A DNA stretch of 21,432 bases from Candidatus Iainarchaeum sp. Lineage in GTDB: Archaea > B1Sed10-29 > WALL01. A model generated the notes under the pieces. That model saw only the letters and a list, made by a program, of their open reading frames with translations, had not been told where the DNA came from and ran no database searches. Location: the NCBI GenBank assembly GCA_021162685.1, contig JAGGYF010000033.1, positions 1-21,432 of the forward strand, written 5' to 3'. The first letter of the stretch is position 1. Every line of letters begins with the position of its first letter. Shown in pieces: positions 4,509 to 16,311 of this stretch. The translations under genes and the position numbers were made by a program.

Positions 4509-5486
4509 ATGCCAACCAAAAGCCCTGAGGAAGTAAAAGAGGAAATATTGGAAGTACTGGATGATGTTCCTAGGACAGTGGATGAAATTAAAAGGCTGGC
4601 TGGGACTAGCTGGCTTGGGACAAAGAAGGCATTGGAGAGTCTAGATAGATTGGGCGTGGTGAAAACAGCGGTTAGAGGGAAGAGGAAATACTACTACAGA
4701 CCGACTGGGAAGACATGGTTTGGCTTGCCGATAAGGGAAAAAGATAAAGAGGTTTTAGAATACATATTCTGGAAGGCTAGGGAGATTTGGAAAGAAAAGG
4801 GAGTAGAGCCAAAAAGGGTGAACTTGCAGAAGGTTGCCGTCCATGTGGCTGAGGACCTAAAGTTGGATATTCCTGTGTTCAGATACTTGTATGGGCAGAT
4901 GACAGTACTCAAAGAAGCACCTAGCGAAAAACCCGCAAGGCCAAGCATTCCTGGGATAGAGGGATCAATAGAAGAGGCTGTAATGCTTTATTCTGGACCC
5001 GCGTACTTAGCAAAGGAGGTCCAATACAAAAAAGAAACAATGAGATTTTACGGGATAAAAAAAGAAATAGAACAAAACTGGCATAGGGAGTTTGAATCTG
5101 GGAAGCTAAGCAAGAGACTGATAGATTGGCTGATGGAAGCACCGAGGGATGAATACATAACTGAGGCCATAAAGGAAGTAATTTCTTTATATGCTCAGGC
5201 ACTCAAGGAAGAAAATCCTGTAGAATATTCTGAACCCCTGAGAGAAGTTTTTAGTAAGATGTGGGATGTGATTGCAACCAGGTTGGCGCACCTGGACTTG
5301 AAGAGTAAAGGTTATTCTGAAGAAGACTTAGAAGAACTCTCAAAGGTATTTGGAAACCGTGTTGAAGAAGCAAAGTACGCGTTGGATGAGTTTGAGAATA
5401 TGTTGACACCAGTAAAGTTGTCTTCGGAGATAGAGTCATTGAAAGGATCGGTTCAGAGATCTTCGGGCAACGAACAAGGAAAATAA
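4509..5486 (+). CDS. Winged-HTH protein with a putative Panacea/SocA (DUF4065)-like antitoxin domain
   Basis: N-terminal ArsR-like wHTH (EILEVLDDVPRTVDEIKRLAGTSWLGTKKALESLDRLGVV...RKYYY). The central LQKVAVHV...PVFRYLYGQ resembles the Panacea LQKxxY...WxYGP pattern (inference). Confidence 0.6.
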   Translation: MPTKSPEEVKEEILEVLDDVPRTVDEIKRLAGTSWLGTKKALESLDRLGVVKTAVRGKRKYYYRPTGKTWFGLPIREKDKEVLEYIFWKAREIWKEKGVEPKRVNLQKVAVHVAEDLKLDIPVFRYLYGQMTVLKEAPSEKPARPSIPGIEGSIEEAVMLYSGPAYLAKEVQYKKETMRFYGIKKEIEQNWHREFESGKLSKRLIDWLMEAPRDEYITEAIKEVISLYAQALKEENPVEYSEPLREVFSKMWDVIATRLAHLDLKSKGYSEEDLEELSKVFGNRVEEAKYALDEFENMLTPVKLSSEIESLKGSVQRSSGNEQGK

Positions 5487-5848
5487 CCAACGAAGTCTTC
5501 TAAGTTTCTGGTGACAATAACTTCTGCTTTTGCCTTTTTGGCTAAGATTACGTGCAAAGCGTCTGGATAATTACTAGGGTTTAACTTTCTAGCATCCTCC
5601 TTATCCCTTTCTGTGGTTTTTACAGATTCTATCTTCTTGCTAATGAGCCAGATGAAAGATGTTTTACCTAAGTTTATTTTGTGCTTTTCTAGTTCATATA
5701 GCGTATGATCCGAGATTATCAGAAAATGCTTACATTCCAAAGTTTCTTGAAAGAACTTGGCTGCCCTGCCACCCAAACTTCTTCCGAAGAGATTCCTTCT
5801 ATCTAGTAAAAAATCCAAGAGGACATTAGCATCAACGTAAACCCGCAT
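5453..5848 (-). CDS. PIN domain (VapC-like) ribonuclease toxin
   Basis: MRVYVDANVLLD...YEL...DALHVILA...IVTRNLEDF. Start set at ATG 5848 because GGTGAG at 5853-5858 is a good SD. Confidence 0.85.
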   Translation of the reverse strand: MRVYVDANVLLDFLLDRRNLFGRSLGGRAAKFFQETLECKHFLIISDHTLYELEKHKINLGKTSFIWLISKKIESVKTTERDKEDARKLNPSNYPDALHVILAKKAKAEVIVTRNLEDFVGYFPCSLPEDL

Positions 5849-5913
5849 TGCTCTCACCGACTAATTATGACACAAAGGAAATAAATTTATTCCTCCTTTA
5901 CCTTATCCCATTG

Positions 5914-7245
5914 ATGAAACCACCCATTACAATATATGGCGGGAAGAAGGAGATCGGGGGAAACAAGGTTTTGTTAGAGGGGAGAGATGCGAAGTTGTGG
6001 TTGGATTTTGGAGTTGGATATGCATCTAGAAGTAAGTATTTTGAGGAGTTTGTTAATCCACGGCCTGCGAATAGGATTGGAGACTTTATTGAGATGGGGT
6101 TGGCTCCGAATCTGAAGGGATTGTACAGGGAGGATTTGATAGGAAGGAGAGAGGAAGTTGAGTATGATGGTGTGTTTATTTCTCATGCGCATATGGATCA
6201 TTGTGCTTATGTGTCGTTTCTGAATCCAGAGATCCCTGTGTATATGAGTGAGGTTACGAAGTTGGTGTTGGAAGCGGTTAAAGAGGCGGGAAAGAGAGAT
6301 ATAGAATTGGAAATACTGGCGTTTAAGGAGAGGCCGATTAAGAAAGGAGCAGAGGAGATTGAGAGGGATATTAGGATTTTCAAGAGTGGGAAGAGGAAGA
6401 GGATTGGAGAGTTTGAGGTAACGCCAGTGAATGTTGATCATTCTGTTCCTGGTGCACACGGGTTTGTTGTGGATGGACCAGAAGGAAGGGTAGTGTATAG
6501 TGGGGATTTGAGGATGCATGGGAGGGGAAGAGAGAAGACAGAGGAATTTGTGGAGAAGGCAGAAGGAGCAGACGTTCTTGTTTTAGAAGGAACTAGGGTG
6601 GAAGAAAAGAGGTCTAGGCTGGAAGAAGATGTTGAAAGGGATGTTGTGAAGTGGGTTAAGGAGCATAGTGGATTGGTGTTAGTTGATTTTAATTTTAAGG
6701 ATGTGGATAGACTGAAAACGTTTTTGAAGGCAAGTGAGGAAAGTGATAGGATATTTGTGATTCCTTTTAAGGAGGCGGTTTTGGTTAAGCATCTGTCAAA
6801 AAAATTGAAGATCCCCTCATTGGATAATTTTGTGTTGTTCAAGCCGAAGAGAAGAAGCGGGATGTTTGAGGAGAGGGACTACAGAGGAGTAGAGAAGGAG
6901 TATTATGAGAAGTATGAGTCATGGACGTATAAGGATGTTATGGAGAATGAGAAGAAAGTTATGCTGTTTTTGTCGTATTATGCGTTTCCGAATTTGATTG
7001 ATTTAAAGCCAAAGAATGCACTGTTTATTCATTCGTTGTCAGAGGCATTTAATGAGGAGATGGAGATTTCAAAGAGGAGGATGATGAATTGGCTGAAGCA
7101 TTTTGGGATAGAGTATAGGCATAGTCATTGTTCTGGGCATGCATCTGGTTCGGAGTTGAGGGATATCGCGAAAGGGATTAATCCAAAGAGGGTGATTCCA
7201 ATTCATACAGAACATCCTAGGAAGCTTACTAGGTTGGTGAAATGA
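5914..7245 (+). CDS. MBL-fold metallo-hydrolase, beta-CASP/RNase J-like
   Basis: EIGGNK, LDFG, SHAHMDH (HxHxDH), VDHSVPGA, YSGDLR, LEGT, HCSGHA, PIHTEH. Start set at ATG 5914 (MKPPITIYGG). Confidence 0.85.
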   Translation: MKPPITIYGGKKEIGGNKVLLEGRDAKLWLDFGVGYASRSKYFEEFVNPRPANRIGDFIEMGLAPNLKGLYREDLIGRREEVEYDGVFISHAHMDHCAYVSFLNPEIPVYMSEVTKLVLEAVKEAGKRDIELEILAFKERPIKKGAEEIERDIRIFKSGKRKRIGEFEVTPVNVDHSVPGAHGFVVDGPEGRVVYSGDLRMHGRGREKTEEFVEKAEGADVLVLEGTRVEEKRSRLEEDVERDVVKWVKEHSGLVLVDFNFKDVDRLKTFLKASEESDRIFVIPFKEAVLVKHLSKKLKIPSLDNFVLFKPKRRSGMFEERDYRGVEKEYYEKYESWTYKDVMENEKKVMLFLSYYAFPNLIDLKPKNALFIHSLSEAFNEEMEISKRRMMNWLKHFGIEYRHSHCSGHASGSELRDIAKGINPKRVIPIHTEHPRKLTRLVK

Positions 7246-7778
7246 TCGGTGTTCTGATTGAAGCAGTTGTGGTTTTGTTTTATATGGTAGCATTGGCTAA
7301 AGGGAGGAACTCAGAGATCACCAGATTTGAAGTTGAGGACTGGAGAAAGGATGTTTTGATTCCGTTTGTGTTGGGTGCTTTGGTAGCAGTGGTGTTTGCG
7401 TTGGTTGGGGGAGTGAATGTTGTTTATAGGGGATTGTTGGGACTGATTCATAGTTTGGCAATTGCTCCTTTGTTTGAGGAGTTGGCGTTTAGGGGAGTGT
7501 TGTTGGGAGGAACGATGAAGTTGTTGGAAAAGAATTTTTCTAAGAGAGTGGTGGATATTAGCGGAGGGGTGTTGGTGGTTTTGGTGGCACTGGGTTTTAC
7601 GATGTTGCATGATTTGGTTTCAAAGGAGTTGTTTGTTTCTGCTGTTTTGTATGGGTTTTTGTATTTGTGGAGGAGGAATCTGGCTGGGCCAGTGGTTGCG
7701 CATTTTGGTGGGAATTTGGTGGTTTGGGTGTTGGCTTTGTTCCTCAATATTTCTTTCCTAGAGGAAACAAACTTTTAA
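7242..7778 (+). CDS. CPBP family (CAAX/Abi) intramembrane metalloprotease; C-terminus now supplied by inserted DNA
   Basis: APLFEELAFRG, FTMLH and VVAHFGGN motifs in a multi-TM protein. The last 14 codons lie inside the insertion. Confidence 0.8.
   Translation: MIGVLIEAVVVLFYMVALAKGRNSEITRFEVEDWRKDVLIPFVLGALVAVVFALVGGVNVVYRGLLGLIHSLAIAPLFEELAFRGVLLGGTMKLLEKNFSKRVVDISGGVLVVLVALGFTMLHDLVSKELFVSAVLYGFLYLWRRNLAGPVVAHFGGNLVVWVLALFLNISFLEETNF
7715..7733 (+). repeat. 19-bp direct repeat, copy 1 (TTTGGTGGTTTGGGTGTTG), putative target-site duplication
   Basis: Identical to 9096-9114. Encodes LVVWVL of the CPBP gene. Confidence 0.85.
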
Positions 7779-7803
7779 GAGTTTGTAGCCTGAAGGAAAG
7801 AAA
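7747..7803. repeat. 57-bp palindromic direct repeat A, copy 1 (downstream of ATPase 1)
   Basis: ATATTTCTTTCCTAGAGGAAACAAACTTTTAAGAGTTTGTAGCCTGAAGGAAAGAAA, 55/57 identical to 9038-9094. Confidence 0.9.
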
Positions 7804-7809
7804 TTGATG

Positions 7810-9012
7810 TTAATACAGCAATCCTATTGAGTATAAAGATACTTCTCCCTTTGATGGTAGCAATGTTTCTTTAACGACATAATGATCGCTATTTCTACCC
7901 AATTGTGATTTACCCTTTGAAGGTCCACCTACTTCAAATACCTTCCCATTCACAACGTAATCAGGTGTCCTTCTTTTTACGCCTGTTTTCAGATACATAG
8001 CATCCCCAACGTGCTGAATGAAAAAGTCTTCACGGATGCCTCCAATACTAGGTTTTACATTGTACTTTGTACACATTGCATATCTGTAGGACAATGACAT
8101 TAACACTTTGTCTTCAGACCTTATTGCTCTGTGTCCTTTTCCGTGCGGAGGGATAATGCGTAGTATCCCTGTCTCTGACAATTTTTCGACTATGTCTCTT
8201 GCAAGTTTTATCCCACATCCGAGTGAGGACGCTAGTTTAGTATAACTAAACTCTCCAGGATCAGATGTTGCCACAAACTTGATCACTCTATAAGCCAAGC
8301 TTATGTAGTATTCGTCAATTTCCCTTAAACTTGCCAAATCGTATCTGATCACCCTATCAAGTATGTTCCAATATATATCTGGATTATTGCTGTAAAATGC
8401 GGCAGGTAATGCGTCTGATTGTACATATGGTTCGTAGAGTGATACATACTGTCCAATCATTTTAGCAATCCTTGTTGTGGGCGATTTAATTATCTCCTCA
8501 AGTGTCATCTTTGGTAGTCTATCCCCTGTCCTTAGGAATATATATTCCCTAAAGGATAGTGGCTTTAGTTCAAATGTTCTTACCCTCCTTGATAGTTCAG
8601 AAGCAGATATCTTTAGGTTTATTGCAGATGAGCCTGTTACCACAATTTTTGAGTGGGTTTCATCATAAAATATCTTTATGTTGTTGGGCCATCCAGGATA
8701 AGTATGTATTTCATCAAGTAGAAAGACATTATAACCTTTTGTTTCGGCATATTCAAGAAATTCAAGCAGGTCAATATCATATTTTACAAGTATGCTAGCA
8801 TCCATATATAACGATTTATCCAGTTTTGCATTAAGTGATGATAGCAGCGTTGTTTTTCCAGTGCCTCTTAGTCCATGTATTGCAAATATTCCACTATTTG
8901 ATAGTATTTCATTTATTATCTCATTACTTGCGTCTCTTAGTTTATCCACTGCTGAGGTTCTGGATATCCTAGCAGCCTCTGAGACTGCCTTTGAGAACAA
9001 TGTTTCTTCCAT
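7810..9012 (-). CDS. AAA+ ATPase (AAA_14 family) with wHTH and degenerate PD-(D/E)XK-like C-terminus (ATPase 1)
   Basis: Walker A GLRGTGKT, Walker B VFLLDEIH, VTGSS, ELSRR, C-terminal TPDYVV...FEVGG. Confidence 0.85.
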   Translation of the reverse strand: MEETLFSKAVSEAARISRTSAVDKLRDASNEIINEILSNSGIFAIHGLRGTGKTTLLSSLNAKLDKSLYMDASILVKYDIDLLEFLEYAETKGYNVFLLDEIHTYPGWPNNIKIFYDETHSKIVVTGSSAINLKISASELSRRVRTFELKPLSFREYIFLRTGDRLPKMTLEEIIKSPTTRIAKMIGQYVSLYEPYVQSDALPAAFYSNNPDIYWNILDRVIRYDLASLREIDEYYISLAYRVIKFVATSDPGEFSYTKLASSLGCGIKLARDIVEKLSETGILRIIPPHGKGHRAIRSEDKVLMSLSYRYAMCTKYNVKPSIGGIREDFFIQHVGDAMYLKTGVKRRTPDYVVNGKVFEVGGPSKGKSQLGRNSDHYVVKETLLPSKGEVSLYSIGLLY

Positions 9013-9037
9013 ACTAGAATTTTGTGGTTACTTATAT

Positions 9038-9094
9038 ATATTTCTTTCCTCAAGGAAACAAACTTTTAAGAGTTTGTAGCCTGAAGGAAAGAAA
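9038..9094. repeat. 57-bp palindromic direct repeat A, copy 2 (abuts the ATPase 1 TATA box)
   Basis: ATATTTCTTTCCTCAAGGAAACAAACTTTTAAGAGTTTGTAGCCTGAAGGAAAGAAA. The minus strand reads GAAAGAAA-TATATATAAG about 20 nt before the ATG. Confidence 0.9.
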
Positions 9095-9095
9095 G

Positions 9096-9120
9096 TTTGG
9101 TGGTTTGGGTGTTGAAGTGA
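9096..9120 (+). repeat. 19-bp direct repeat, copy 2, followed by the orphaned original CPBP end (AAG TGA)
   Basis: t TTG GTG GTT TGG GTG TTG AAG TGA = LVVWVLK*. Confidence 0.85.
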
Positions 9121-9123
9121 GAC

Positions 9124-10341
9124 CTATACTTCCCACACAGGTATGAAGTATACATTTCTTGAGATCTCAGTTTTTTTCATCCAAAAAACTATCCCAAACG
9201 GTGAGTTAAAGTCTCTGATGAAGTTATAGAACGCTTTTCTCGGTTTGCCTCTGCTTTTTATTTCTATTGGTATTGGTGGATCTCCAACTATGACATCAAT
9301 CTCTGCTCCGGATAATGTTCTGAAATACGTTGGATTCATTTCGTTTATCTCGTTAATAACAAAGTTTTCAAGTAGTCTTCCAAGATCAATTCTATCCCAA
9401 ACATCTGAAAAATCATTTATGATAGCATTTCTCAGTCCAATATCAATGAAGTAAACTTCATTCCTCTTTGTTATCGTTTTTCTTCTATTTGTTGAGAAGG
9501 GAGGTATTTGTCTTATGATGTATGTCTTTTCAAGTGCATATAAATACTCTCTTAGAGTTATTTGGTTCACATCCGATATCTTTGAAAATCTGGATATATT
9601 CAGGCCTTTTCCTAGGTCTGCTGCAAGCAATTTAACAACCCTTGTGAATTTTTCGCTATTTTTTACTCCCATAAAATGAACTATATCTCTTTCTATGTAT
9701 GTTTGGTATAAACTTTTTAGTAGCATTCTCTTTTTCTCGTAATCTCTCTCAGTGACTATTCTGGGGAACCCACCATACATTAAATACTCGCTGAACAACC
9801 TTTTCACTTCCTGTGAGAATGCGAACTCGCTAACTTTCTTTTTATTTCCTTTGAGAAGTGTTAATATTATGCTCTTATTTTTTGACCACAACCTGTATAG
9901 TTCAGGATTTTTGTATTCCAAGAATTCTCCAAAATCTAAGGGAAGCAATTCAAAGTAGACTAGCCTTCCAACAAGGTAACTTCCGATATCTACCTTTATG
10001 TCAAAAGACCCAGATCCAGAGACAACAATTTTCAGTTTCCCTTTGTATTGGTCATACCACATCTTCAAGATGTGCCCAATTTCTTTAATGTATTGAGCCT
10101 CGTCTAGGTATATGATTTTCTTTGATAAGTATCTTTGGATAAACCCCTTAGCATCTCTTTTTATGGCGTCTCTTGTGTCATCGTCCTCCAAGGTCAAGTA
10201 TTCTCCGCCGTATTTGGACAACAAGTACTTTAGGGTTGTGGTCTTTCCAGCTTGTCTTGGTCCCTTTATTGCTATGATCTCTGGGGAGTCCATCCACCCC
10301 TCTATCTTGATCCAGATTTTTCTAGGAATGACATCTTCCAT
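9124..10341 (-). CDS. ATP-binding protein, AAA_14 + DUF4143 (ATPase 2)
   Basis: GPRQAGKTT, IIYLDEAQ, SGSGS, LVGR, YGGFP, YFIDIGLRN, LLENFV, EIDVIV...IEIK. GGTGA SD at 10346-10350. Confidence 0.9.
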   Translation of the reverse strand: MEDVIPRKIWIKIEGWMDSPEIIAIKGPRQAGKTTTLKYLLSKYGGEYLTLEDDDTRDAIKRDAKGFIQRYLSKKIIYLDEAQYIKEIGHILKMWYDQYKGKLKIVVSGSGSFDIKVDIGSYLVGRLVYFELLPLDFGEFLEYKNPELYRLWSKNKSIILTLLKGNKKKVSEFAFSQEVKRLFSEYLMYGGFPRIVTERDYEKKRMLLKSLYQTYIERDIVHFMGVKNSEKFTRVVKLLAADLGKGLNISRFSKISDVNQITLREYLYALEKTYIIRQIPPFSTNRRKTITKRNEVYFIDIGLRNAIINDFSDVWDRIDLGRLLENFVINEINEMNPTYFRTLSGAEIDVIVGDPPIPIEIKSRGKPRKAFYNFIRDFNSPFGIVFWMKKTEISRNVYFIPVWEV

Positions 10342-10419
10342 AGGGTCACCAGTATGTTTTCAACGTTATAATTTTTATAGTTTACTATAATTTTTACAGG
10401 GTAAATTTAATAGTGTGGT

Positions 10420-10462
10420 TATTTATAAACCTTCTTCTCAAAAATGCGAAGGTTTATAAATA
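10420..10462. promoter_or_regulatory. Perfect 15-bp inverted repeat forming back-to-back BRE-TATA-like elements
   Basis: TATTTATAAACCTTC-N13-GAAGGTTTATAAATA. Each arm read outward is GAAGG-TTTATAAA. Confidence 0.6.
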
Positions 10463-10466
10463 GTAG

Positions 10467-10514
10467 GGTTTCTCTTAGGGGGAAATAATTTAAAAAGATT
10501 TCCCCTTATGGGAA
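10467..10514. repeat. 48-bp palindromic direct repeat B, copy 1 (overlaps last codons and stop of ATPase 3)
   Basis: GGTTTCTCTTAGGGGGAAATAATTTAAAAAGATTTCCCCTTATGGGAA, identical to 11714-11761. Confidence 0.9.
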
Positions 10515-11713
10515 ACTAATTCAAAGAAAGAGATGTTCCGAATGTTTTTCAAGGGATATTTTTTCACAGTTATTATGTATTTTTTCGGCGTTTTTAGTAG
10601 GTGGAATCCACGCGTTTCACGTTCTAGTGTTTGTTTATTTAAGCCGTAGGCTACTTGGATCGCGGTTAGTGGTTTTTCTAGGATGAAATCCAATTCTGAG
10701 GAAGCGTCAGAGAGGTAGTATATGTTTGATAATCCAAATGTTCTTACCAGTTCACTGAATATGATATTCTCAAAAATCCTCCCCTCATTCCTTAGGAAGA
10801 TATGGTCACAAAGATAGACCTTTGGGAGTGCTTTTTCTCTTGATTTTTTAGATCTGTAGAATTTTTTTACCTCAAAAAAGAAAAGTGCATTTAGGATGTA
10901 CATATAGTAGGTATATAGTGTTTTTTTGCTCACCTTCATTCCCATAGATTTGACATCGTTGAATATTTTATGGATAGAGAATGTGCTTGCAACCGAGGAT
11001 TCAATTGAAGTGAGAAGGTAATAGAGTAGTTTCAGATTTCTTATGTTGTATCTTTCAATGATGTCCCTGAAGACGACGACATCTTTGTAGTCTGAAAGGA
11101 ACTGTTGTTTTGTGTGTGGGGATAGTACGACTTGTGGAAATCCCCCCAATTTCATGTATTTGTGGAATTTTTTGATTAGTTTTGATTCTGAGTATGAAGA
11201 ATGGATAGCCTCAAACTTTTCGTTATATTTGAACCTAAGAAATTCTGGAAAAGATAAGGGCAGAACAAGATGTGAGATGGATCTGCCCCTCATGGAAGTG
11301 GCGATCTCTTTACTTGTGACCCTTGAGTTTGATCCTGTAATGACTATCTTGTATCGCCCTCCTTCATGTATAGAGGATATTGCTCTCTCCCAACCGTTCA
11401 TGTTTTGTATTTCATCTAGGAAGATATACCCAGGCCTCTTTCCATAGATGGATATGTGGGTATTAACAGCATCCTTTATAAGGCGGATGTTTGGTTCAAT
11501 TTCTGGGTCTTCTAAGTTTATGTACAGATAATCATCGTCGCTGAGATGTAGTTTGTTCTTTATGATATCATATATGAGGAAACTTTTTCCTGCCCTCCTT
11601 GGTCCAACAAGAACTGTGACAAATTGATGGGTCAGTGTGGGATAGAGATCCCTGGGTAGTACATTTACTTCCTTGATTTCTTCCTTTTTGTCCAAGAGGT
11701 ATCTTTCGTTCAT
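10490..11713 (-). CDS. ATP-binding protein, AAA_14 + DUF4143 (ATPase 3)
   Basis: GPRRAGKS, YIFLDEIQ, ITGSNS, MRGR, GGFP, KVYLCD, IFENII, ELDFIL...IQV. Confidence 0.9.
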   Translation of the reverse strand: MNERYLLDKKEEIKEVNVLPRDLYPTLTHQFVTVLVGPRRAGKSFLIYDIIKNKLHLSDDDYLYINLEDPEIEPNIRLIKDAVNTHISIYGKRPGYIFLDEIQNMNGWERAISSIHEGGRYKIVITGSNSRVTSKEIATSMRGRSISHLVLPLSFPEFLRFKYNEKFEAIHSSYSESKLIKKFHKYMKLGGFPQVVLSPHTKQQFLSDYKDVVVFRDIIERYNIRNLKLLYYLLTSIESSVASTFSIHKIFNDVKSMGMKVSKKTLYTYYMYILNALFFFEVKKFYRSKKSREKALPKVYLCDHIFLRNEGRIFENIIFSELVRTFGLSNIYYLSDASSELDFILEKPLTAIQVAYGLNKQTLERETRGFHLLKTPKKYIITVKKYPLKNIRNISFFELVSHKGKSF

Positions 11714-11761
11714 GGTTTCTCTTAGGGGGAAATAATTTAAAAAGATTTCCCCTTATGGGAA
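11714..11761. repeat. 48-bp palindromic direct repeat B, copy 2 (immediately 5' of the ATPase 3 ATG; contains its likely TATA box)
   Basis: The minus strand reads ...GGGGAAATCTTTTTAAATTATTTCCCCCTAAGAGAAACC-ATG, with the TATA-like core about 22-30 nt upstream of the ATG. Confidence 0.9.
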
Positions 11762-11797
11762 TAACCTTTTTATTTTTTAGTATATATAGCTCTTACT

Positions 11798-12160
11798 GTG
11801 TTAGTCAGGGTTGAATTACCAAAAACAAAAAGCAATATTGTGAAAAAGAACGGAGGAATTATCTATTGCGCAGTCTATAGAGAGAAGAAGGGAAGGTTTA
11901 GGAAAGATGTTGAGGAGTCAAGAGAGTTTGGAAGGAGAATATGTGATGCAGTGAAAAAGAGGATGCATAACAAGGGGTTTTTTACTAGTGATGAATTGCC
12001 AGGATATGGAATTTCAGAAGAAGAGAAAGCAATTATTCTTGAAAGGACAGGAGCAGGAAAAGATGATTTAGTAGCTATTTTTGCTTATGAGAAAGACGAG
12101 GCAGAGGAAACGAAAAGAGTTTTGGATGAAATTTTAAAGGAGAGTGAAACTCATGGTTGA
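11798..12160 (+). CDS. Stand-alone GAD-like domain protein (resembles the AspRS-like insertion domain of GatE)
   Basis: GFFTSDELPGYGISEEEKAIILERTGAGKDDLVAIFA matches the GatE GIFHSDELPxYGIxxxE pattern recalled from the family. No GatB/E catalytic domains in 120 aa. Confidence 0.7.
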   Translation: MLVRVELPKTKSNIVKKNGGIIYCAVYREKKGRFRKDVEESREFGRRICDAVKKRMHNKGFFTSDELPGYGISEEEKAIILERTGAGKDDLVAIFAYEKDEAEETKRVLDEILKESETHG

Positions 12161-12240
12161 GAAGCAAGAGGTGATTGAGGAGATAAGGAAAAGATTTGAT
12201 GAGCTACTTTTTGAAGAATTACGAGTTCGCAATGTTGACA
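12153..12240 (+). pseudogene. Possible 5' gene remnant (MVEKQEVIEEIRKRFDELLFEELRV...)
   Basis: The ATG overlaps the end of the GAD gene and follows a GGAG SD. About 25 coding-like codons, then the frame runs antisense into the convergent gene. Confidence 0.35.
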
Positions 12241-13434
12241 TTAGTCTTCCTCGAATATCCTCATTATATTCTCATCTATCCTCTTTAGAGATTCTTTGTC
12301 AATATCAATATCTTTTAACCAAGGTACTCCATGCCAAGCCGCACGATCTCTGTAGTAGCGTACAAGACTTAGTGCACTGGTTTCTCCATAGTTAAGAAAG
12401 TAACCCGATGAAAGCTGTGAGAGATGTTCTTGTGTTAGTCCTTTGTCTTTACCCACAGCATCTATGACAGCTTTTCTCATGCGTGGATTTTGTAGGCCAC
12501 CAGCAAACATTAGCCTAAAAATCATCACCTTTTTTTCGACATCTCCAACTTTCTTCAAGTACCCTTCCACCATACGAGCAGCCTTTTCTACGGCTTCTGC
12601 ATTATTGTTAGGGATTTCTGGTAGGGGGGACCTCCAGTATACTTTTCCAAGCTCTTTGAATTTTCCTGCCAAAACTGTTTTGATTCGCTCCTCAAAGTGG
12701 GGTAGGTTCCCCTCAACAGGTACCCCCCTCTCAGCAGTTCTTATTGTTGTCACACTACGAACATTCCATGGGAGAATATCCTCCAGTCTTGCATAATCTC
12801 TATTACTGAACTCTTTAATTATTTTTCTGTCAAGCTCCTTCATCTTCTCTGCAAAATCGTTTTTTAACCTGTGAAAACCTCTACTGCCAGAAAATTTATC
12901 CTCCATTGATTTAATCATGAGAGAGAGTATAGCTATAGCTCTCCACGGTTCTTCTGATATCCTATCAACAATCCTCTTCTCAGCTAGAAGTTGTATTTGT
13001 CCTGTGTTGGCCCTATTGTCGGCTCCAGTGTACATTAATGATATGTTTATAATGTGTGCATCTTCATTAGGAGCCTTTGGATCAAATTCATGAAGCTTCT
13101 TTGGTCGTTTTTCTAGCTTTACGAAGTTCCCATCCTTGACAAGTCTGTGCTCTACAATTGGGGAGATTATTGTGTTATAAGCTAAACGAACCCCCGGCAC
13201 TTTAATTGACTTTGGTTCCCTTACCCCCCTATAGAGAGCAGCCACCCCACTTCCAGTTATGATCCCAAGCTCTTTCATTACTGCATTGCTGAGTATCTCC
13301 TTTGCAAATTCCTCATCATGCATTTGATGCAACAATGTTCCCAGTTCTATCTCTTTCTCGCGCTTTTTACCATCAACTTCCCACGATATCCTTACCTTTT
13401 TCTTCATGATTTCGGGACGTTTTTCAATTGGCAT
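12241..13434 (-). CDS. Hypothetical protein (397 aa, soluble, charged)
   Basis: Long ORF with protein-like composition and an upstream TTTTAAA TATA-like box at ~13457-13464. No family recognised. Confidence 0.75.
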   Translation of the reverse strand: MPIEKRPEIMKKKVRISWEVDGKKREKEIELGTLLHQMHDEEFAKEILSNAVMKELGIITGSGVAALYRGVREPKSIKVPGVRLAYNTIISPIVEHRLVKDGNFVKLEKRPKKLHEFDPKAPNEDAHIINISLMYTGADNRANTGQIQLLAEKRIVDRISEEPWRAIAILSLMIKSMEDKFSGSRGFHRLKNDFAEKMKELDRKIIKEFSNRDYARLEDILPWNVRSVTTIRTAERGVPVEGNLPHFEERIKTVLAGKFKELGKVYWRSPLPEIPNNNAEAVEKAARMVEGYLKKVGDVEKKVMIFRLMFAGGLQNPRMRKAVIDAVGKDKGLTQEHLSQLSSGYFLNYGETSALSLVRYYRDRAAWHGVPWLKDIDIDKESLKRIDENIMRIFEED

Positions 13435-13557
13435 ACTATACTTATCATTCTTTACAATTTAAAACTATCCTGAGTACTGTCCATTTGGGTTCTCGGAAAT
13501 GAGAAGAGGTTTAAAATTAATCCTACAAAAACCTTACCCTTTTTTCTATGCTCCTTG

Positions 13558-13600
13558 TGAATTGCCAGGATTGGATTTCAGAAGAAGAGAAAGCAGTTAT
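13558..13600 (+). repeat. Degenerate copy of GAD-gene segment 11992-12036
   Basis: TGAATTGCCAGGAT-TGGA-TTTCAGAAGAAGAGAAAGCAGTTAT vs TGAATTGCCAGGATATGGAATTTCAGAAGAAGAGAAAGCAATTAT (two 1-nt gaps, one mismatch). Confidence 0.85.
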
Positions 13601-13680
13601 AGTGCTTCTTCTGCCCAACCAGCGAAAGGTTATTTAATGGGGAGAGGTATAATAATCTGCTGCTGGTTTTTGGTGGTTCA

Positions 13681-15024
13681 GTGGACAAAGCAGATGTATT
13701 TGAGGTAGCTATATCAAATCCAGTTTCAAGGGCTTTCTTCAGAGGAATTACTAAAAACAAGAGATTGGAAAGAATACTTTCAAGGGAGAAGCAGAACTAT
13801 GATCTGGCGTGCTATTTTTATCAGCCTTGGGTTGACTTAATGCTTTATGCAACTTCAAGGTTTTTTCACTTTGAAAGCGACTTGAGAGAGAAAGGGAGGG
13901 AAAAATTAGTTAAAAGGGGAGCACAAAACCTATTTGCTTCAATAGGTGAGTATGGTTTAACACAGCCTCAGAAACTTGTGGCTCCATTTCTTGTTGTCTG
14001 GGATGTAACTAAGGCTTGTAACTTGAAGTGTGCACACTGCTACTCCAACTCAGGAAAGGCTTCAAAAAATGAGTTAACAACGCAGGAGGCAAAAGACATA
14101 ATTGACCAATTGGTTGATGCAGGTGTTGTCTCCCTTGCTTTTTCAGGGGGAGAACCGCTGGTGAGACCAGACATCTTTGAATTACTTGAGTATGCTTCAA
14201 AAAGCGGGCTTTACACAGCACTTGCTACTAATGGTACCCTCATAACAAAAGATGTTGCTAGAAAGATAAAGCAGACAGGAACAGAATACGTGGAGATAAG
14301 CCTGGATAGCCCAAACCCTGCAGTGCATGATGCTTTTAGAGGGGTTACTGGGGCTTTTGATAGAACTGTTAATGGGATAAAAAACTGCGTTGACCAAGGA
14401 ATGTGTACAGTAATTGCTACAACAGTTACAAGACATAACATTAATGATATAGATAAGATGGTAGACTTGGCTCTTAAGCTGAAAGTGTTCAGGTTGCTGT
14501 TTTTCAACTTTGTTCCAACTGGGAGAGGAAAGCAAATAACTGGCTCTGACCTAACCCCCCAACAAAGAAAAGAGCTTTTAGAGTATATATGTAGGAAAAG
14601 AGATGAGTTGATGGGAAAGCTTGACTTTTTTTCGACTGATCCGTGCTTTGCTGCTGCTCTAGTAAGACACAAAAAGGATATGTTTGTGGAGCATACAGCA
14701 AAATTCCTTGGGGGCTGTGCTGCTGGTAGGGTTTACTGCTCAATTACTGCTGAAGGAAAGGTCAAGCCATGCGTTTTCATGCCAATAATTGTTGGTGACT
14801 TGAGAAAGCAGTCTTTTGAGGATATATGGAACAATTCAGAAGTAATGAAAAACTTAAGGGACTGGTCAAAAAGAAATGAGAAATGCCGCGAGTGCAAGTA
14901 CAACACTATTTGCGGTGGATGCAGGTCGCGTGCTTATGGTTACACAGGCAATTATCTTGGCGATGACCCTCTTTGCCCTTACTCAAGCGAGTTATGGCCT
15001 AAAGAAAAGGATATAAAAGAGTGA
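13681..15024 (+). CDS. Radical SAM protein with SPASM domain (NirJ/AhbCD/PqqE-like superfamily)
   Basis: CNLKCAHC (CxxxCxxC), SGGEPL, C-terminal CAAG...KPC...CRECKYNTICGGCRSRA...DPLC. GGTGG SD before the GTG, and BRE-TATA CGAAAGGTTATTTAA at 13623-13637. Confidence 0.9.
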   Translation: MDKADVFEVAISNPVSRAFFRGITKNKRLERILSREKQNYDLACYFYQPWVDLMLYATSRFFHFESDLREKGREKLVKRGAQNLFASIGEYGLTQPQKLVAPFLVVWDVTKACNLKCAHCYSNSGKASKNELTTQEAKDIIDQLVDAGVVSLAFSGGEPLVRPDIFELLEYASKSGLYTALATNGTLITKDVARKIKQTGTEYVEISLDSPNPAVHDAFRGVTGAFDRTVNGIKNCVDQGMCTVIATTVTRHNINDIDKMVDLALKLKVFRLLFFNFVPTGRGKQITGSDLTPQQRKELLEYICRKRDELMGKLDFFSTDPCFAAALVRHKKDMFVEHTAKFLGGCAAGRVYCSITAEGKVKPCVFMPIIVGDLRKQSFEDIWNNSEVMKNLRDWSKRNEKCRECKYNTICGGCRSRAYGYTGNYLGDDPLCPYSSELWPKEKDIKE

Positions 15025-15039
15025 TGAGTAAGTGAAGGC

Positions 15040-16311
15040 ATGAGAGAGATATTAGTGGTTGTTCTTGCTGTGGCTGTGATTGGTTCACTTGTGTTGTTTC
15101 TTTTTCCTTATAATCCATTGCATCCTCCGAGGGCAGATGAGACAGGGGCTACAGAGGAAGGGATTAGAGCAGTTGTTGATGCAAATAATGCGTTTGCTTT
15201 TGATATGTATTCGGTGTTGAGTAAAGAGGAAGGGAATGTGTTCTTTTCACCTTATAGTATCTTCTCTGCTATGGCGATTGTGTATGAGGGAGCAGTGGGG
15301 GATACTGCAGAGGAGATAGGAAGCGTGTTGTATTTTCCGAGTAAGGAGGTTTTGGAGCCGAATTTTGCTGCGGTGTACAATGGAGTTAATAGCAGGGGTG
15401 TGAGAACAGGGAATGCGCTCTGGGTTCAGAAGGGATTTCCATTGGTTGAGGAGTATGTGGAGAGGGTGGAGAAGTACTATGGTGGTAAGGCAGCAAATGT
15501 TGATTTTGTGAATAAGCCAAAGGAGAGTGTGAGTACGATTAATCAGTTTATAGAGGAACAAACAAATGGAAAGATAAAGAAACTTATCAATGAGAACATG
15601 ATTACTTCTTTGACAAGGGTTATAGTGACAAATGCTGTATACTTTAAGGGGAAGTGGAAGTGGCAGTTTGATCCAAGTAAGACAAGGGATATGGAGTTTC
15701 ATGTTTCTCCTGAGGAGAGCGTGGCTGTAAGGATGATGTATATGGAGCCAGAGAAGGCGAAGTTTAGGTATGGCGATTTCGGTTTTATGCAGATGCTGGA
15801 GTTGCCCTATGAGGGAAATATGTCAATGATTATTCTGTTGCCAAAGCAGGGGAAAGAGTTTGATCCGATGACAGGTGAGGCGATTACATATAATTATACA
15901 ATAGAGGATGTTGAAAAGCAACTAACGCTTGAGAATTTTGAGAAGTGGAGATCAGAGATGAAAGAGACTAAACTTGATGGGATCTATCTTCCGCGCTTTG
16001 AAACAGAGGAGAGTTATGATTTAGTGGAAGGTATGAAAGAATTGGGTGTAGAAGATGCGTTTGATCATTTTAGGGCAGATTTTTCTGAGATGAGTGAGAG
16101 GCCCCTGTATATAGATTTTATTGTGCATAAGGCGTATGTTAAGGTGGATGAGGAGGGGACAGAGGCGGCAGCAGCAACTGCTGTTAGTTTTTCTGTGACT
16201 GCGGTGAGGAAGGAGAAGGTGTTTAAAGCAGATCATCCATTTGTGTTTTTGATTCAGGATGATGGTTTGATACTGTTTATGGGAAGGGTTGTTGATCCTA
16301 CAAAAACCTGA
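15040..16311 (+). CDS. Serpin (serine protease inhibitor) with N-terminal membrane anchor/signal
   Basis: NNAFAFDMY, NVFFSPYSI, NAVYFKGKW, LELPY, hinge VDEEGTEAAAAT, FKADHPFVFLI, ILFMGRV. Hydrophobic residues 4-23. Confidence 0.95.
   Translation: MREILVVVLAVAVIGSLVLFLFPYNPLHPPRADETGATEEGIRAVVDANNAFAFDMYSVLSKEEGNVFFSPYSIFSAMAIVYEGAVGDTAEEIGSVLYFPSKEVLEPNFAAVYNGVNSRGVRTGNALWVQKGFPLVEEYVERVEKYYGGKAANVDFVNKPKESVSTINQFIEEQTNGKIKKLINENMITSLTRVIVTNAVYFKGKWKWQFDPSKTRDMEFHVSPEESVAVRMMYMEPEKAKFRYGDFGFMQMLELPYEGNMSMIILLPKQGKEFDPMTGEAITYNYTIEDVEKQLTLENFEKWRSEMKETKLDGIYLPRFETEESYDLVEGMKELGVEDAFDHFRADFSEMSERPLYIDFIVHKAYVKVDEEGTEAAAATAVSFSVTAVRKEKVFKADHPFVFLIQDDGLILFMGRVVDPTKT

Follow-up and report, generated by a model that had tools for sequence, protein, structure and literature searches.

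A one-gene ATPase-nuclease cassette with paired palindromic modules, nested inside a probable target duplication at the end of an archaeal CPBP protease gene

The stretch of DNA analyzed here (the window) is an entire contig of 21.4 kb (JAGGYF010000033.1, 21,432 nucleotides; C18 in our numbering) from Candidatus Iainarchaeum sp., a small DPANN-type archaeon whose genome (G000) amounts to 1.11 Mb on 45 contigs and is 98.4% complete. Sequencing runs containing the stretch are labelled as hydrothermal vent metagenomes. Our subject is the unit around A1, a gene for an ATPase with a nuclease-like domain that sits at the 3′ end of a gene for a CPBP membrane protease (Table 1). Along the plus strand, the elements follow one another as a 19-nucleotide (nt) repeat, 13 nt, a 57-nt repeat, 6 nt, A1, 25 nt, the second 57-nt repeat, a single G, the second 19-nt repeat, and AAG TGA. 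The 57-nt repeats, 55/57 identical, are nested inside the 19-mers, and the insert contains a single open reading frame (ORF). The A1 unit is a self-contained one-gene cassette of the PDC-S01 kind (a defense candidate of the PADLOC collection), consisting of a 57-nt module, a promoter, the gene, and the same module again.

A prediction made earlier from the letters of this DNA (the original prediction) had described a 19-bp target-site-like duplication outside the 57-bp repeats and had concluded that the A1 unit was inserted into the end of the CPBP gene. The duplication itself was confirmed: the 19-mer occurs exactly, on the plus strand, at 7715 to 7733 and 9096 to 9114; these are the only full copies in the 1.11-Mb assembly (next best match, 13 nt); no third copy is present in the window at up to 3 mismatches; and 0 of 100 shuffles yielded two matches. 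What had been said of the reading frame held as well. The CPBP ORF passes through the left 19-mer (LVVWVL) and the 13 nt (ALFL) into the left 57-mer, at whose center it terminates (...LVVWVLALFLNISFLEETNF-stop), its last 45 nt (7734 to 7778) coming from the insert, or from the 13-nt spacer and the module. The right 19-mer runs in the CPBP frame into a K-stop located 3 nt from the stop codon of the next ATPase gene, A2, and removal of 1381 bp leaves an open CPBP frame ending ...LVVWVLK-stop. With the 57-mers counted as part of the cassette, no repeat but the 19-mer pair consists of host gene sequence.

Table 1. Features of the window at and around the A1 cassette (positions counted from the first letter of the window; aa, amino acids)
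Feature	Position	Strand	Remarks
MBL-fold RNase gene	5848..7245		overlaps CPBP gene start
CPBP (Rce1-like) membrane protease gene	7242..7778	+	Pfam PF02517, E 3.5e-11, residues 65-160; translation
Left 19-nt direct repeat copy	7715..7733	+	reads (N)LVVWVL in CPBP protein
13-nt spacer encoding ALFL	7734..7746	+	10/13 match to first arm of right module copy
Palindromic module, copy downstream of A1	7747..7803		begins 6 nt past A1 stop; contains present CPBP stop in its center; top-ranking long palindrome of G000
A1: 400-aa AAA_14 ATPase + winged helix + DUF4143-like nuclease domain, divergent PDC-S01	7810..9012	-	
A1 promoter stretch, putative TATA-like box across module edge	9013..9037	-	25-35 nt spacing recurs in seven other cassettes
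Palindromic module, copy upstream of A1	9038..9094		55/57 identical to 7747-7803
Right 19-nt repeat copy	9096..9114	+	
AAG TGA, candidate displaced original CPBP end (K-stop)	9115..9120	+	3 nt from A2 stop codon
A2: AAA_14 + DUF4143 ATPase	9124..10341	-	without flanking repeat; one upstream palindrome at 10420-10462
A3 cassette	10467..11761	-	AAA_14 + DUF4143 gene 10490..11713 between perfect 48-nt copies 10467-10514 / 11714-11761
Fourth unit	11992..13600		repeat 11992-12036 / 13558-13600 brackets GAD gene 3′ end + A4
A4: 397-aa gene without family match	12241..13434	-	

The 57-nt repeats, which the original prediction had treated as a side issue, proved to be the hallmark of a cassette family. 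Each copy is an imperfect palindrome folding as one long hairpin (z scores of -7.6 and -5.7; left copy, -15.6 kcal/mol), and the two differences between the copies sit in an internal loop of the predicted fold. A weak inverted similarity reported between the element ends is due solely to each module being a palindrome, the ends themselves being direct repeats. A scan of G000 for long palindromes found 24, the best two of which are the A1 modules; a search of the modules against RNA families gave no match. The modules of four related loci (L007, L010, L011, and L016) are single hairpins too (z of -4.2 to -5.6), and any given module has exactly two copies in its genome. An alignment of the A1 modules with those upstream of L007 (51% protein identity, in another family) and L008, the nearest relatives, has 32 invariant columns, which include AGGC.ACAAA and TTTGTT.CC. 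Across 14 loci, the more alike the proteins, the more alike the 130 nt upstream of their genes (Spearman 0.46, reached by 0 of 5000 label permutations, a P value made generous by the nonindependence of related loci), and the top upstream-DNA pairs are sister pairs of the protein tree, each split between different genomes. L008 has its upstream module in the usual place and no downstream copy, which it either lost or never had. Because the modules covary with the protein, occur as a lone upstream copy at L008, are each present twice in their genome, and belong to a rare class of palindrome, sequence comparison assigns the module pair to the cassette and not to the target DNA. A native hairpin, such as a host terminator, caught in a 57-nt target duplication was rejected given the rarity of long palindromes (24) and the covariation with the protein. 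The module is most likely a DNA site bound by the protein's winged helix.

A second cassette in the window, A3, repeats the pattern with another palindrome. Its modules (48/48 identical) and those of its closest relative, 59% identical and located in genome G007 (33/33), are clearly related, both being built on a GGGGGAAAT / ATTTCCCC palindrome; pairs are perfect within each genome yet differ between the two, suggesting either that copies are homogenized or that the cassette was reinserted and thereby renewed them. The G007 cassette lies near an orthologue of the window's serpin gene, in opposite orientation. The 48-nt repeat of A3 contains the palindrome together with the last 24 nt of the A3 ORF and abuts its ATG, so that a circle closed at the repeat would be almost entirely coding.

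A search of A1 against 31 genomes of its class returned 15 places at E ≤ 1e-20 in 7 genomes, and the left and right flanks of each gene were compared, with ten shuffles per locus peaking at 20 to 34 bits. A strong direct repeat (56 to 121 bits) was present in 7 of the 15: the window (55/57), L007 (61/61), L010 (51/51), L011 (58/58), L016 (49/49), L015 (37/37), and L009 (31/32). Four more (L013, L017, L019, and L020) carry matching palindromes left and right, in less similar copies, bringing the bracketed places to 11, spread over G000 and five other genomes; three (L008, L014, and L018) have no downstream module copy, and one (L012) is truncated by a contig end. Read in the direction of the gene, the layout is constant, namely, the module, 25 to 35 nt with a TATA-like box, ATG to stop, 2 to 12 nt, and the same module. 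The A3 branch occupies 25 places in 13 of the 31 genomes, and repeats reached at least 40 bits in 6 of 23 assessable places, the other 17 scoring at most 34 bits. Flanking repeats were found in 0 of 4 places of the A2 branch and in 0 of 4 plasmid-borne A3 homologues (three bacterial and one from Methanosphaera; 4 examined of 273 plasmid records). As a control, 273 ORFs of 300 to 500 amino acids in G000 were considered, of which 250 had enough flank for testing. Only 5 showed a flank repeat of at least 40 bits: A1, A3, A4, an AAA_14 gene on contig C39 (1442..2827), and a tandem duplicate on C42. Flanking repeats are specific to these genes, and in this archaeal class most of them are cassette-borne palindromic modules rather than target DNA.

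One comparison bears on the fate of the unit as a whole. The two genes on either side of cassette L013 in G017 are neighbors in the sister species G013, separated there by one module (flanks 73 to 75% identical). Since the modules are cassette-borne, the lone G013 module is best read as what remained after recombination between two copies. The unit comes and goes as a block.

The A1 protein matches Pfam AAA_14 (PF13173, E 9.7e-24), and its Walker A and Walker B residues G47, G50, G52, K53, T54, D100, and E101 show no variation among 14 family members. AAA_14 is all that Pfam sees in A1, and DUF4143 (PF13635) was not detected; an A1-family profile, however, aligns to A2 through the DUF4143 region (probability, 99.1%; E 7e-19; 338 columns). 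A PD-(D/E)xK-like site keeps its acidic residues throughout the A1 family (E328, D351, and E360, and likewise K366), with the position of the ExK lysine displaced. A structure model of A1 (predicted local distance difference test, 89.3; predicted template modeling score, 0.87) found its best fold matches in CED-4/Apaf-type proteins, DNA-bound Orc1/Cdc6, and the archaeal ATPases SSO1545 and PAB2304, all with the low template modeling scores (TM-scores) expected for a multidomain chain. PADLOC PDC-S01 matched A1 at E 3.1e-21 (residues 26 to 277 only), A2 at E 1.2e-79, and A3 at E 3.4e-87. Like other members of PDC-S01 (COG1373; AAA_14 plus DUF4143), A1, A2, and A3 are single-gene units of about 400 amino acids that join an ATPase to a PD-(D/E)xK-type domain, a putative one in the case of A1; A1 differs in its divergence, the undetected Pfam DUF4143, and the shifted lysine. 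We regard it as a candidate anti-virus gene. In part of its text, PMC12988326 ranks PDC-S01 as the fourth most common predicted defense system in prokaryotes, abundant and especially frequent in archaea and lacking experimental proof, and that part mentions neither flanking repeats nor mobility. In the literature searched, which excluded the supplements of PMC12988326 and PMC2853133, no description of such modules or of repeat-bracketed PDC-S01 genes was found. One phage record matches A1 at 25% identity.

The explanation that we favor, with confidence a little above even, is insertion of the whole cassette in one step into the end of the CPBP gene, duplicating 19 nt of target. The cassette (7734 to 9095, or 7747 to 9094 plus a short filler) would have entered the last CPBP codons and doubled 19 nt of target; CPBP would now read from the left copy into the insert and stop in the module center, with the old K-stop end displaced behind the right copy. 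The most likely route would be a staggered-end break, or two nicks made independently at a distance of 19 nt, followed by ligation to the entering DNA and filling of the gaps, a mechanism already put forward for insertion with long target duplication of restriction-modification genes; the cassette's own nuclease could have made the cuts, or host repair could account for them. Two module copies would permit loss of the gene by recombination with one lone module remaining, and reinsertion or gene conversion may renew the copies and keep them identical within a cassette. We favor this reading because the 19-mer is exact and unique, both copies stand in the CPBP frame, and the right copy runs into a stop; because the cassette is discrete and its modules are cassette-borne; and because the usual recombinases were not found and there is a published precedent for nuclease genes. 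It also draws on the AAA_14 gene on C39, which is bracketed, together with a promoter-like stretch, by a genome-unique, nonpalindromic 26-nt repeat (1372 to 1397 and 2890 to 2915; 25/26 identical) that looks like a second target duplication.

Several observations weigh against one-step insertion. Excising just the module-gene-module unit (7747 to 9094) also keeps the CPBP frame open, through a second LVVWVL to the same K-stop. The other 13 module-bearing cassettes have no comparable outer repeat: the longest words shared outside their modules are 5 to 9 nt, and for the two nominal hits (L044, 9 nt, P = 0.005; L036, 8 nt, P = 0.045) the copies do not lie beside both module edges. The expectation of comparable duplications around other copies thus failed, with 0 of 13 repeat-bracketed family cassettes showing one. 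Base composition does not mark the cassette as foreign (GC skew at the 21st percentile, GC at the 17th), and 19 bp falls short of the 30-bp limit in the definition of long target duplication as given in part of PMC2853133; the 57-nt repeat exceeds that limit but belongs to the cassette and not to the target. No uninterrupted allele was found by protein search, by metagenome scan, or in the contigs of four runs, and the steps of cutting and joining are ones that we infer. The insertion claim of the original prediction is supported in part, by the discrete cassette and by the unique 19-mers outside its repeats. Its claim that the present CPBP tail derives from the insert stands in part. The NISFLEETNF tail is absent from the CPBP homologues of G004, G012, and G007, so ALFLNISFLEETNF is not conserved in these three relatives. 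However, all three end 10 to 11 hydrophobic residues past a GN/SN motif, which the present LVVWVLALFL fits better than does the 7-residue LVVWVLK. Given this match in length, the 13 nt that follow the left 19-mer could belong to the CPBP gene itself, while their likeness to the module arm (10/13) speaks weakly for insert origin.

These same facts bear on a two-step history, which we consider unlikely. There, the two 19-mers, spaced 33 nt apart, would have stood at the CPBP end beforehand, whether as a repeat in frame or as the scar that a former mini-insertion or lone module had left, and the cassette would have entered or returned at its module edges without duplication. Such a history would suit the frame left open after excision at the module edges, the 13 of 13 other cassettes that end at those edges, the lone module at the unoccupied G013 site, and the helix length that ALFL gives in the homologues; the same genome, moreover, holds hairpin-bearing mini-insertions bracketed by duplicated tRNA ends. 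It nevertheless requires an exact 19-nt repeat, otherwise unexplained, precisely at the later landing spot, and one insertion event duplicating 19 nt is still needed. The 14 nt that remain between the 19-mers after removal of 7747 to 9094 match nothing else, and the resemblance of the 13-nt spacer to the module arm points away from a native origin.

Searches of the 98.4%-complete genome gave no match to tyrosine (PF00589) or serine (PF00239) recombinases, both of which were matched in control genomes, nor to the Y1 transposase (PF01797) or, at E ≤ 0.01, to Cas1 (PF01867). As these four common families were not found, a cut-and-fill or repair route is plausible, possibly with the cassette's own nuclease. 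To that extent, the proposal of widely staggered cuts or of action by the ATPase-nuclease itself survives, as a mechanism whose cutting and joining are inferred; the suggested likeness to casposon target-site duplications or att cores found no counterpart, with no Cas1, tyrosine, or serine recombinase match in the genome. Four known types of element were set aside. A DDE insertion sequence or transposon was rejected as the sole insert gene encodes an ATPase and the insert has direct repeats at its ends (no genome-wide search for DDE families was made); a casposon, by the lack of any Cas1-type integrase match in the genome; an integrase-borne island or integron cassette, by the lack of a tyrosine or serine recombinase match; and an IS200/IS605-type element, by the lack of a Y1 transposase, hairpins being present but as identical direct copies.

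A length of 19 bp is typical of an att core, and a circle of 1381 bp closed at the 19-mer would place this core between the two modules, as between arm sites of an attP. Site-specific integration by an integrase supplied in trans is nonetheless highly improbable, since the genome yielded no tyrosine or serine recombinase, the cassette encodes only an ATPase, and the other cassettes carry no outer core.

Six sequencing runs contain parts of the stretch. Contigs from four of them, compared over 5500 to 15500, showed no joints; they are fragmentary and of low depth and therefore say nothing about the absence of an empty allele. These short-read contigs break within the repeats, and none of the listed pieces crosses the left junction, as might be expected if an episomal circle sharing the module had been threaded into the chromosome path during assembly. 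Such an artefact, or a chance repeat, is the least probable of the explanations considered. Chance is opposed by the 0 of 100 shuffles. As to assembly, a word-indexed protein search with the CPBP protein matched only itself, but its protein cluster holds one further sequence, with an identical tail, on a 17-kb contig of a second assembly that also bears A1 and the start of A2; in a run from a different study, a 238-nt contig spans 8881 to 9118 without difference and covers the right junction; the module copies differ at 2 positions; and the same architecture, with repeats of 30 to 61 nt, recurs in assemblies of several other genomes. Scanning of metagenomes, once for the CPBP protein and once for A1, produced no confirmed match, and a scan of a genome collection with A1 gave only one distant bacterial match. 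Among the relatives compared, none is close enough to supply a single-copy empty site for the 19-mer. Empty sites were likewise not found for L008, L011, L017, and L027, whose flanks match a sister genome on one side only or reach contig ends.

The A1 cassette opens a run of four minus-strand genes of about 400 amino acids, A1 to A4, in which A1, A2, and A3 share 22 to 24% pairwise identity. The AAA_14 cutoff is passed at 14 places in G000, several of them at contig ends. A4 had no match in Pfam, NCBIfam, or PADLOC and no usable protein-atlas match. The other window genes around A1 include a split DNA methylase, a DUF4145 gene, a PDC-S11 candidate, and a PIN gene; further genes encode a GAD-domain protein, a radical SAM/SPASM protein, a serpin, and a Hef-type helicase. 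In the middle of the GAD gene, which is intact, lies a 45-nt piece (11992 to 12036) that recurs 1.5 kb downstream with one indel (13558 to 13600) and is not palindromic. This repeat may be the relic of a recombinational swap, and the downstream fragment is read as the relic because the GAD domain continues intact past the left copy.

A similar swap could account for the A1 junctions. A donor allele from a related strain, carrying its own CPBP end and the cassette, would have replaced the local one by a left crossover inside CPBP and an illegitimate right joint before the recipient's last 25 nt, leaving a working new CPBP end and a displaced old stub. The region from 7800 to 13600 is indeed a variable slot, with four unrelated units beside restriction-modification, PDC-S11, and PIN genes, and the GAD fragment looks like just such a relic. 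We still hold this replacement to be unlikely, though it and the two-step history are the serious rivals of one-step insertion: it only shifts the origin of the cassette-CPBP junction into the donor, a donor-like allele was not seen, and the right-hand joint still needs an illegitimate event.

Elsewhere in the window, two overlapping minus-strand ORFs at 727 to 2780 each encode half of an N6_N4 DNA methylase domain (profile positions 145 to 213 and 1 to 132), the gene being either split or frameshifted. The MBL RNase and CPBP genes (5848 to 7778) show an extreme G-over-C excess on the coding strand (0.51 and 0.59), the former value standing at the 99th percentile among 695 long G000 ORFs. A syntenic counterpart of 4509 to 7254 occurs in another family (L066, G007:C37), with the CPBP homologue inverted so that it converges on the MBL gene across a 29-nt gap; this homologue ends ...NWLVWIEFLLV-stop. 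The palindrome upstream of A2 has an exact 14-mer in common with a 25-nt repeat flanking an ATPase gene of G018 (L048, G018:C13, 1358 to 1382 and 2612 to 2636). Family matches of the radical SAM/SPASM ORF (13681 to 15024) start only near residue 100, and a 69-amino-acid ORF (13499..13708) that overlaps its start contains a GAD-like fragment.

Other contigs of G000 hold further repeats. Duplicated fragments of tRNA 3′ ends were seen at C12:4890-5125, C15:41110-41360, C16:1090-1345, C17:210-3010, and C20:2440-2680. Some bracket a recurring element of about 100 to 200 nt, and those on C17 bracket blocks of 1 to 1.7 kb with small ORFs of toxin-antitoxin size (84 to 186 amino acids; a likeness in size only). 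No integrase was found in the genome that bears these tRNA-end duplicates. A CRISPR-like array lies at a contig end (C26:13-490; repeats of 37 to 40 nt, spacing of 73 to 75 nt), and the assembly gave no Cas1 family match.

Among the closest known systems is insertion with long target duplication, which Nobusato et al. reportedly described in 2000 for restriction-modification gene units. In the part of the 2010 paper by Furuta, Abe, and Kobayashi (PMC2853133) that treats them, such inserted units are flanked by genome-unique duplications of 46 to 47 bp overlapping the 3′ end of a neighbor, and repeat lengths are long and variable. Shared with A1 are a nuclease gene unit without transposase or integrase and a genome-unique direct repeat over the 3′ end of a neighboring gene. 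The A1 case differs in an outer repeat of only 19 bp (against the limit of 30 bp), in the lack of an empty site proving target origin, in a cargo that is an ATPase-nuclease and not a restriction-modification pair, and in a palindromic module pair inside the duplication, which that part of the source does not describe for the restriction-modification cases. Elements of the long terminal repeat type and their solo repeats resemble the A1 cassette in form only, with identical terminal direct repeats, a short outer target duplication, and a lone repeat after loss; they differ in that the cassette has no reverse transcriptase, its repeats are 30- to 61-nt palindromes, and most cassettes of the family have no outer duplication. 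Integron gene cassettes with attC, and with them the repeat-ORF-repeat arrays of chromosomal integrons, have in common with A1-type units a compact single ORF between imperfect palindromes of comparable size. Here, however, no integron-type tyrosine recombinase was found, the module stands on both sides in place of one attC, and the GTT and AAC triplets are reversed in the A1 modules (judged by eye against the attC consensus). Archaeal Orc1/Cdc6 with its origin recognition boxes offers another likeness, an AAA+ ATPase with winged helix by paired repeats around an A+T-rich center, and the fold search puts A1 beside Orc1/Cdc6 on origin DNA (2qby_A, E 3.5e-8; 2v1u_A). Here the TM-scores are low (0.30 to 0.43), A1 has an added nuclease-like domain, and the palindrome arms are only 6 to 18 nt apart; the likeness is one of form.

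What this locus adds is a cassette-borne module pair nested inside a probable target duplication, with both kinds of repeat at one place. As regards the spread of such lone defense-candidate genes, the window unites a cis element, a probable insertion scar, and a genome without the usual recombinases, and across 31 related genomes the module pair is a conserved and apparently self-renewing feature. The nested repeats hint at how such genes move without a known recombinase. A bolder reading, which we regard as doubtful, is that the PDC-S01 ATPase-nucleases of the A1 branch are autonomous one-gene mobile elements whose own winged helix binds the module. The unit would exit as a one-module circle and leave a lone module behind; cleavage at either edge of the module, staggered by about 50 to 60 nt, followed by joining to a broken target and fill-in, would yield two identical modules and an outer target duplication of variable length (19 nt here, 26 nt on C39, none elsewhere). 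This reading would explain why pairs are 100% identical while modules drift between lineages. If true, it would define a new class of transposition, by a PD-(D/E)xK nuclease with an AAA+ motor, and one of the commonest "defense candidates" would be at least partly selfish. Module and scar offer testable handles on whether these genes move themselves, a question that bears on the assembly of defense islands in very small archaeal genomes.

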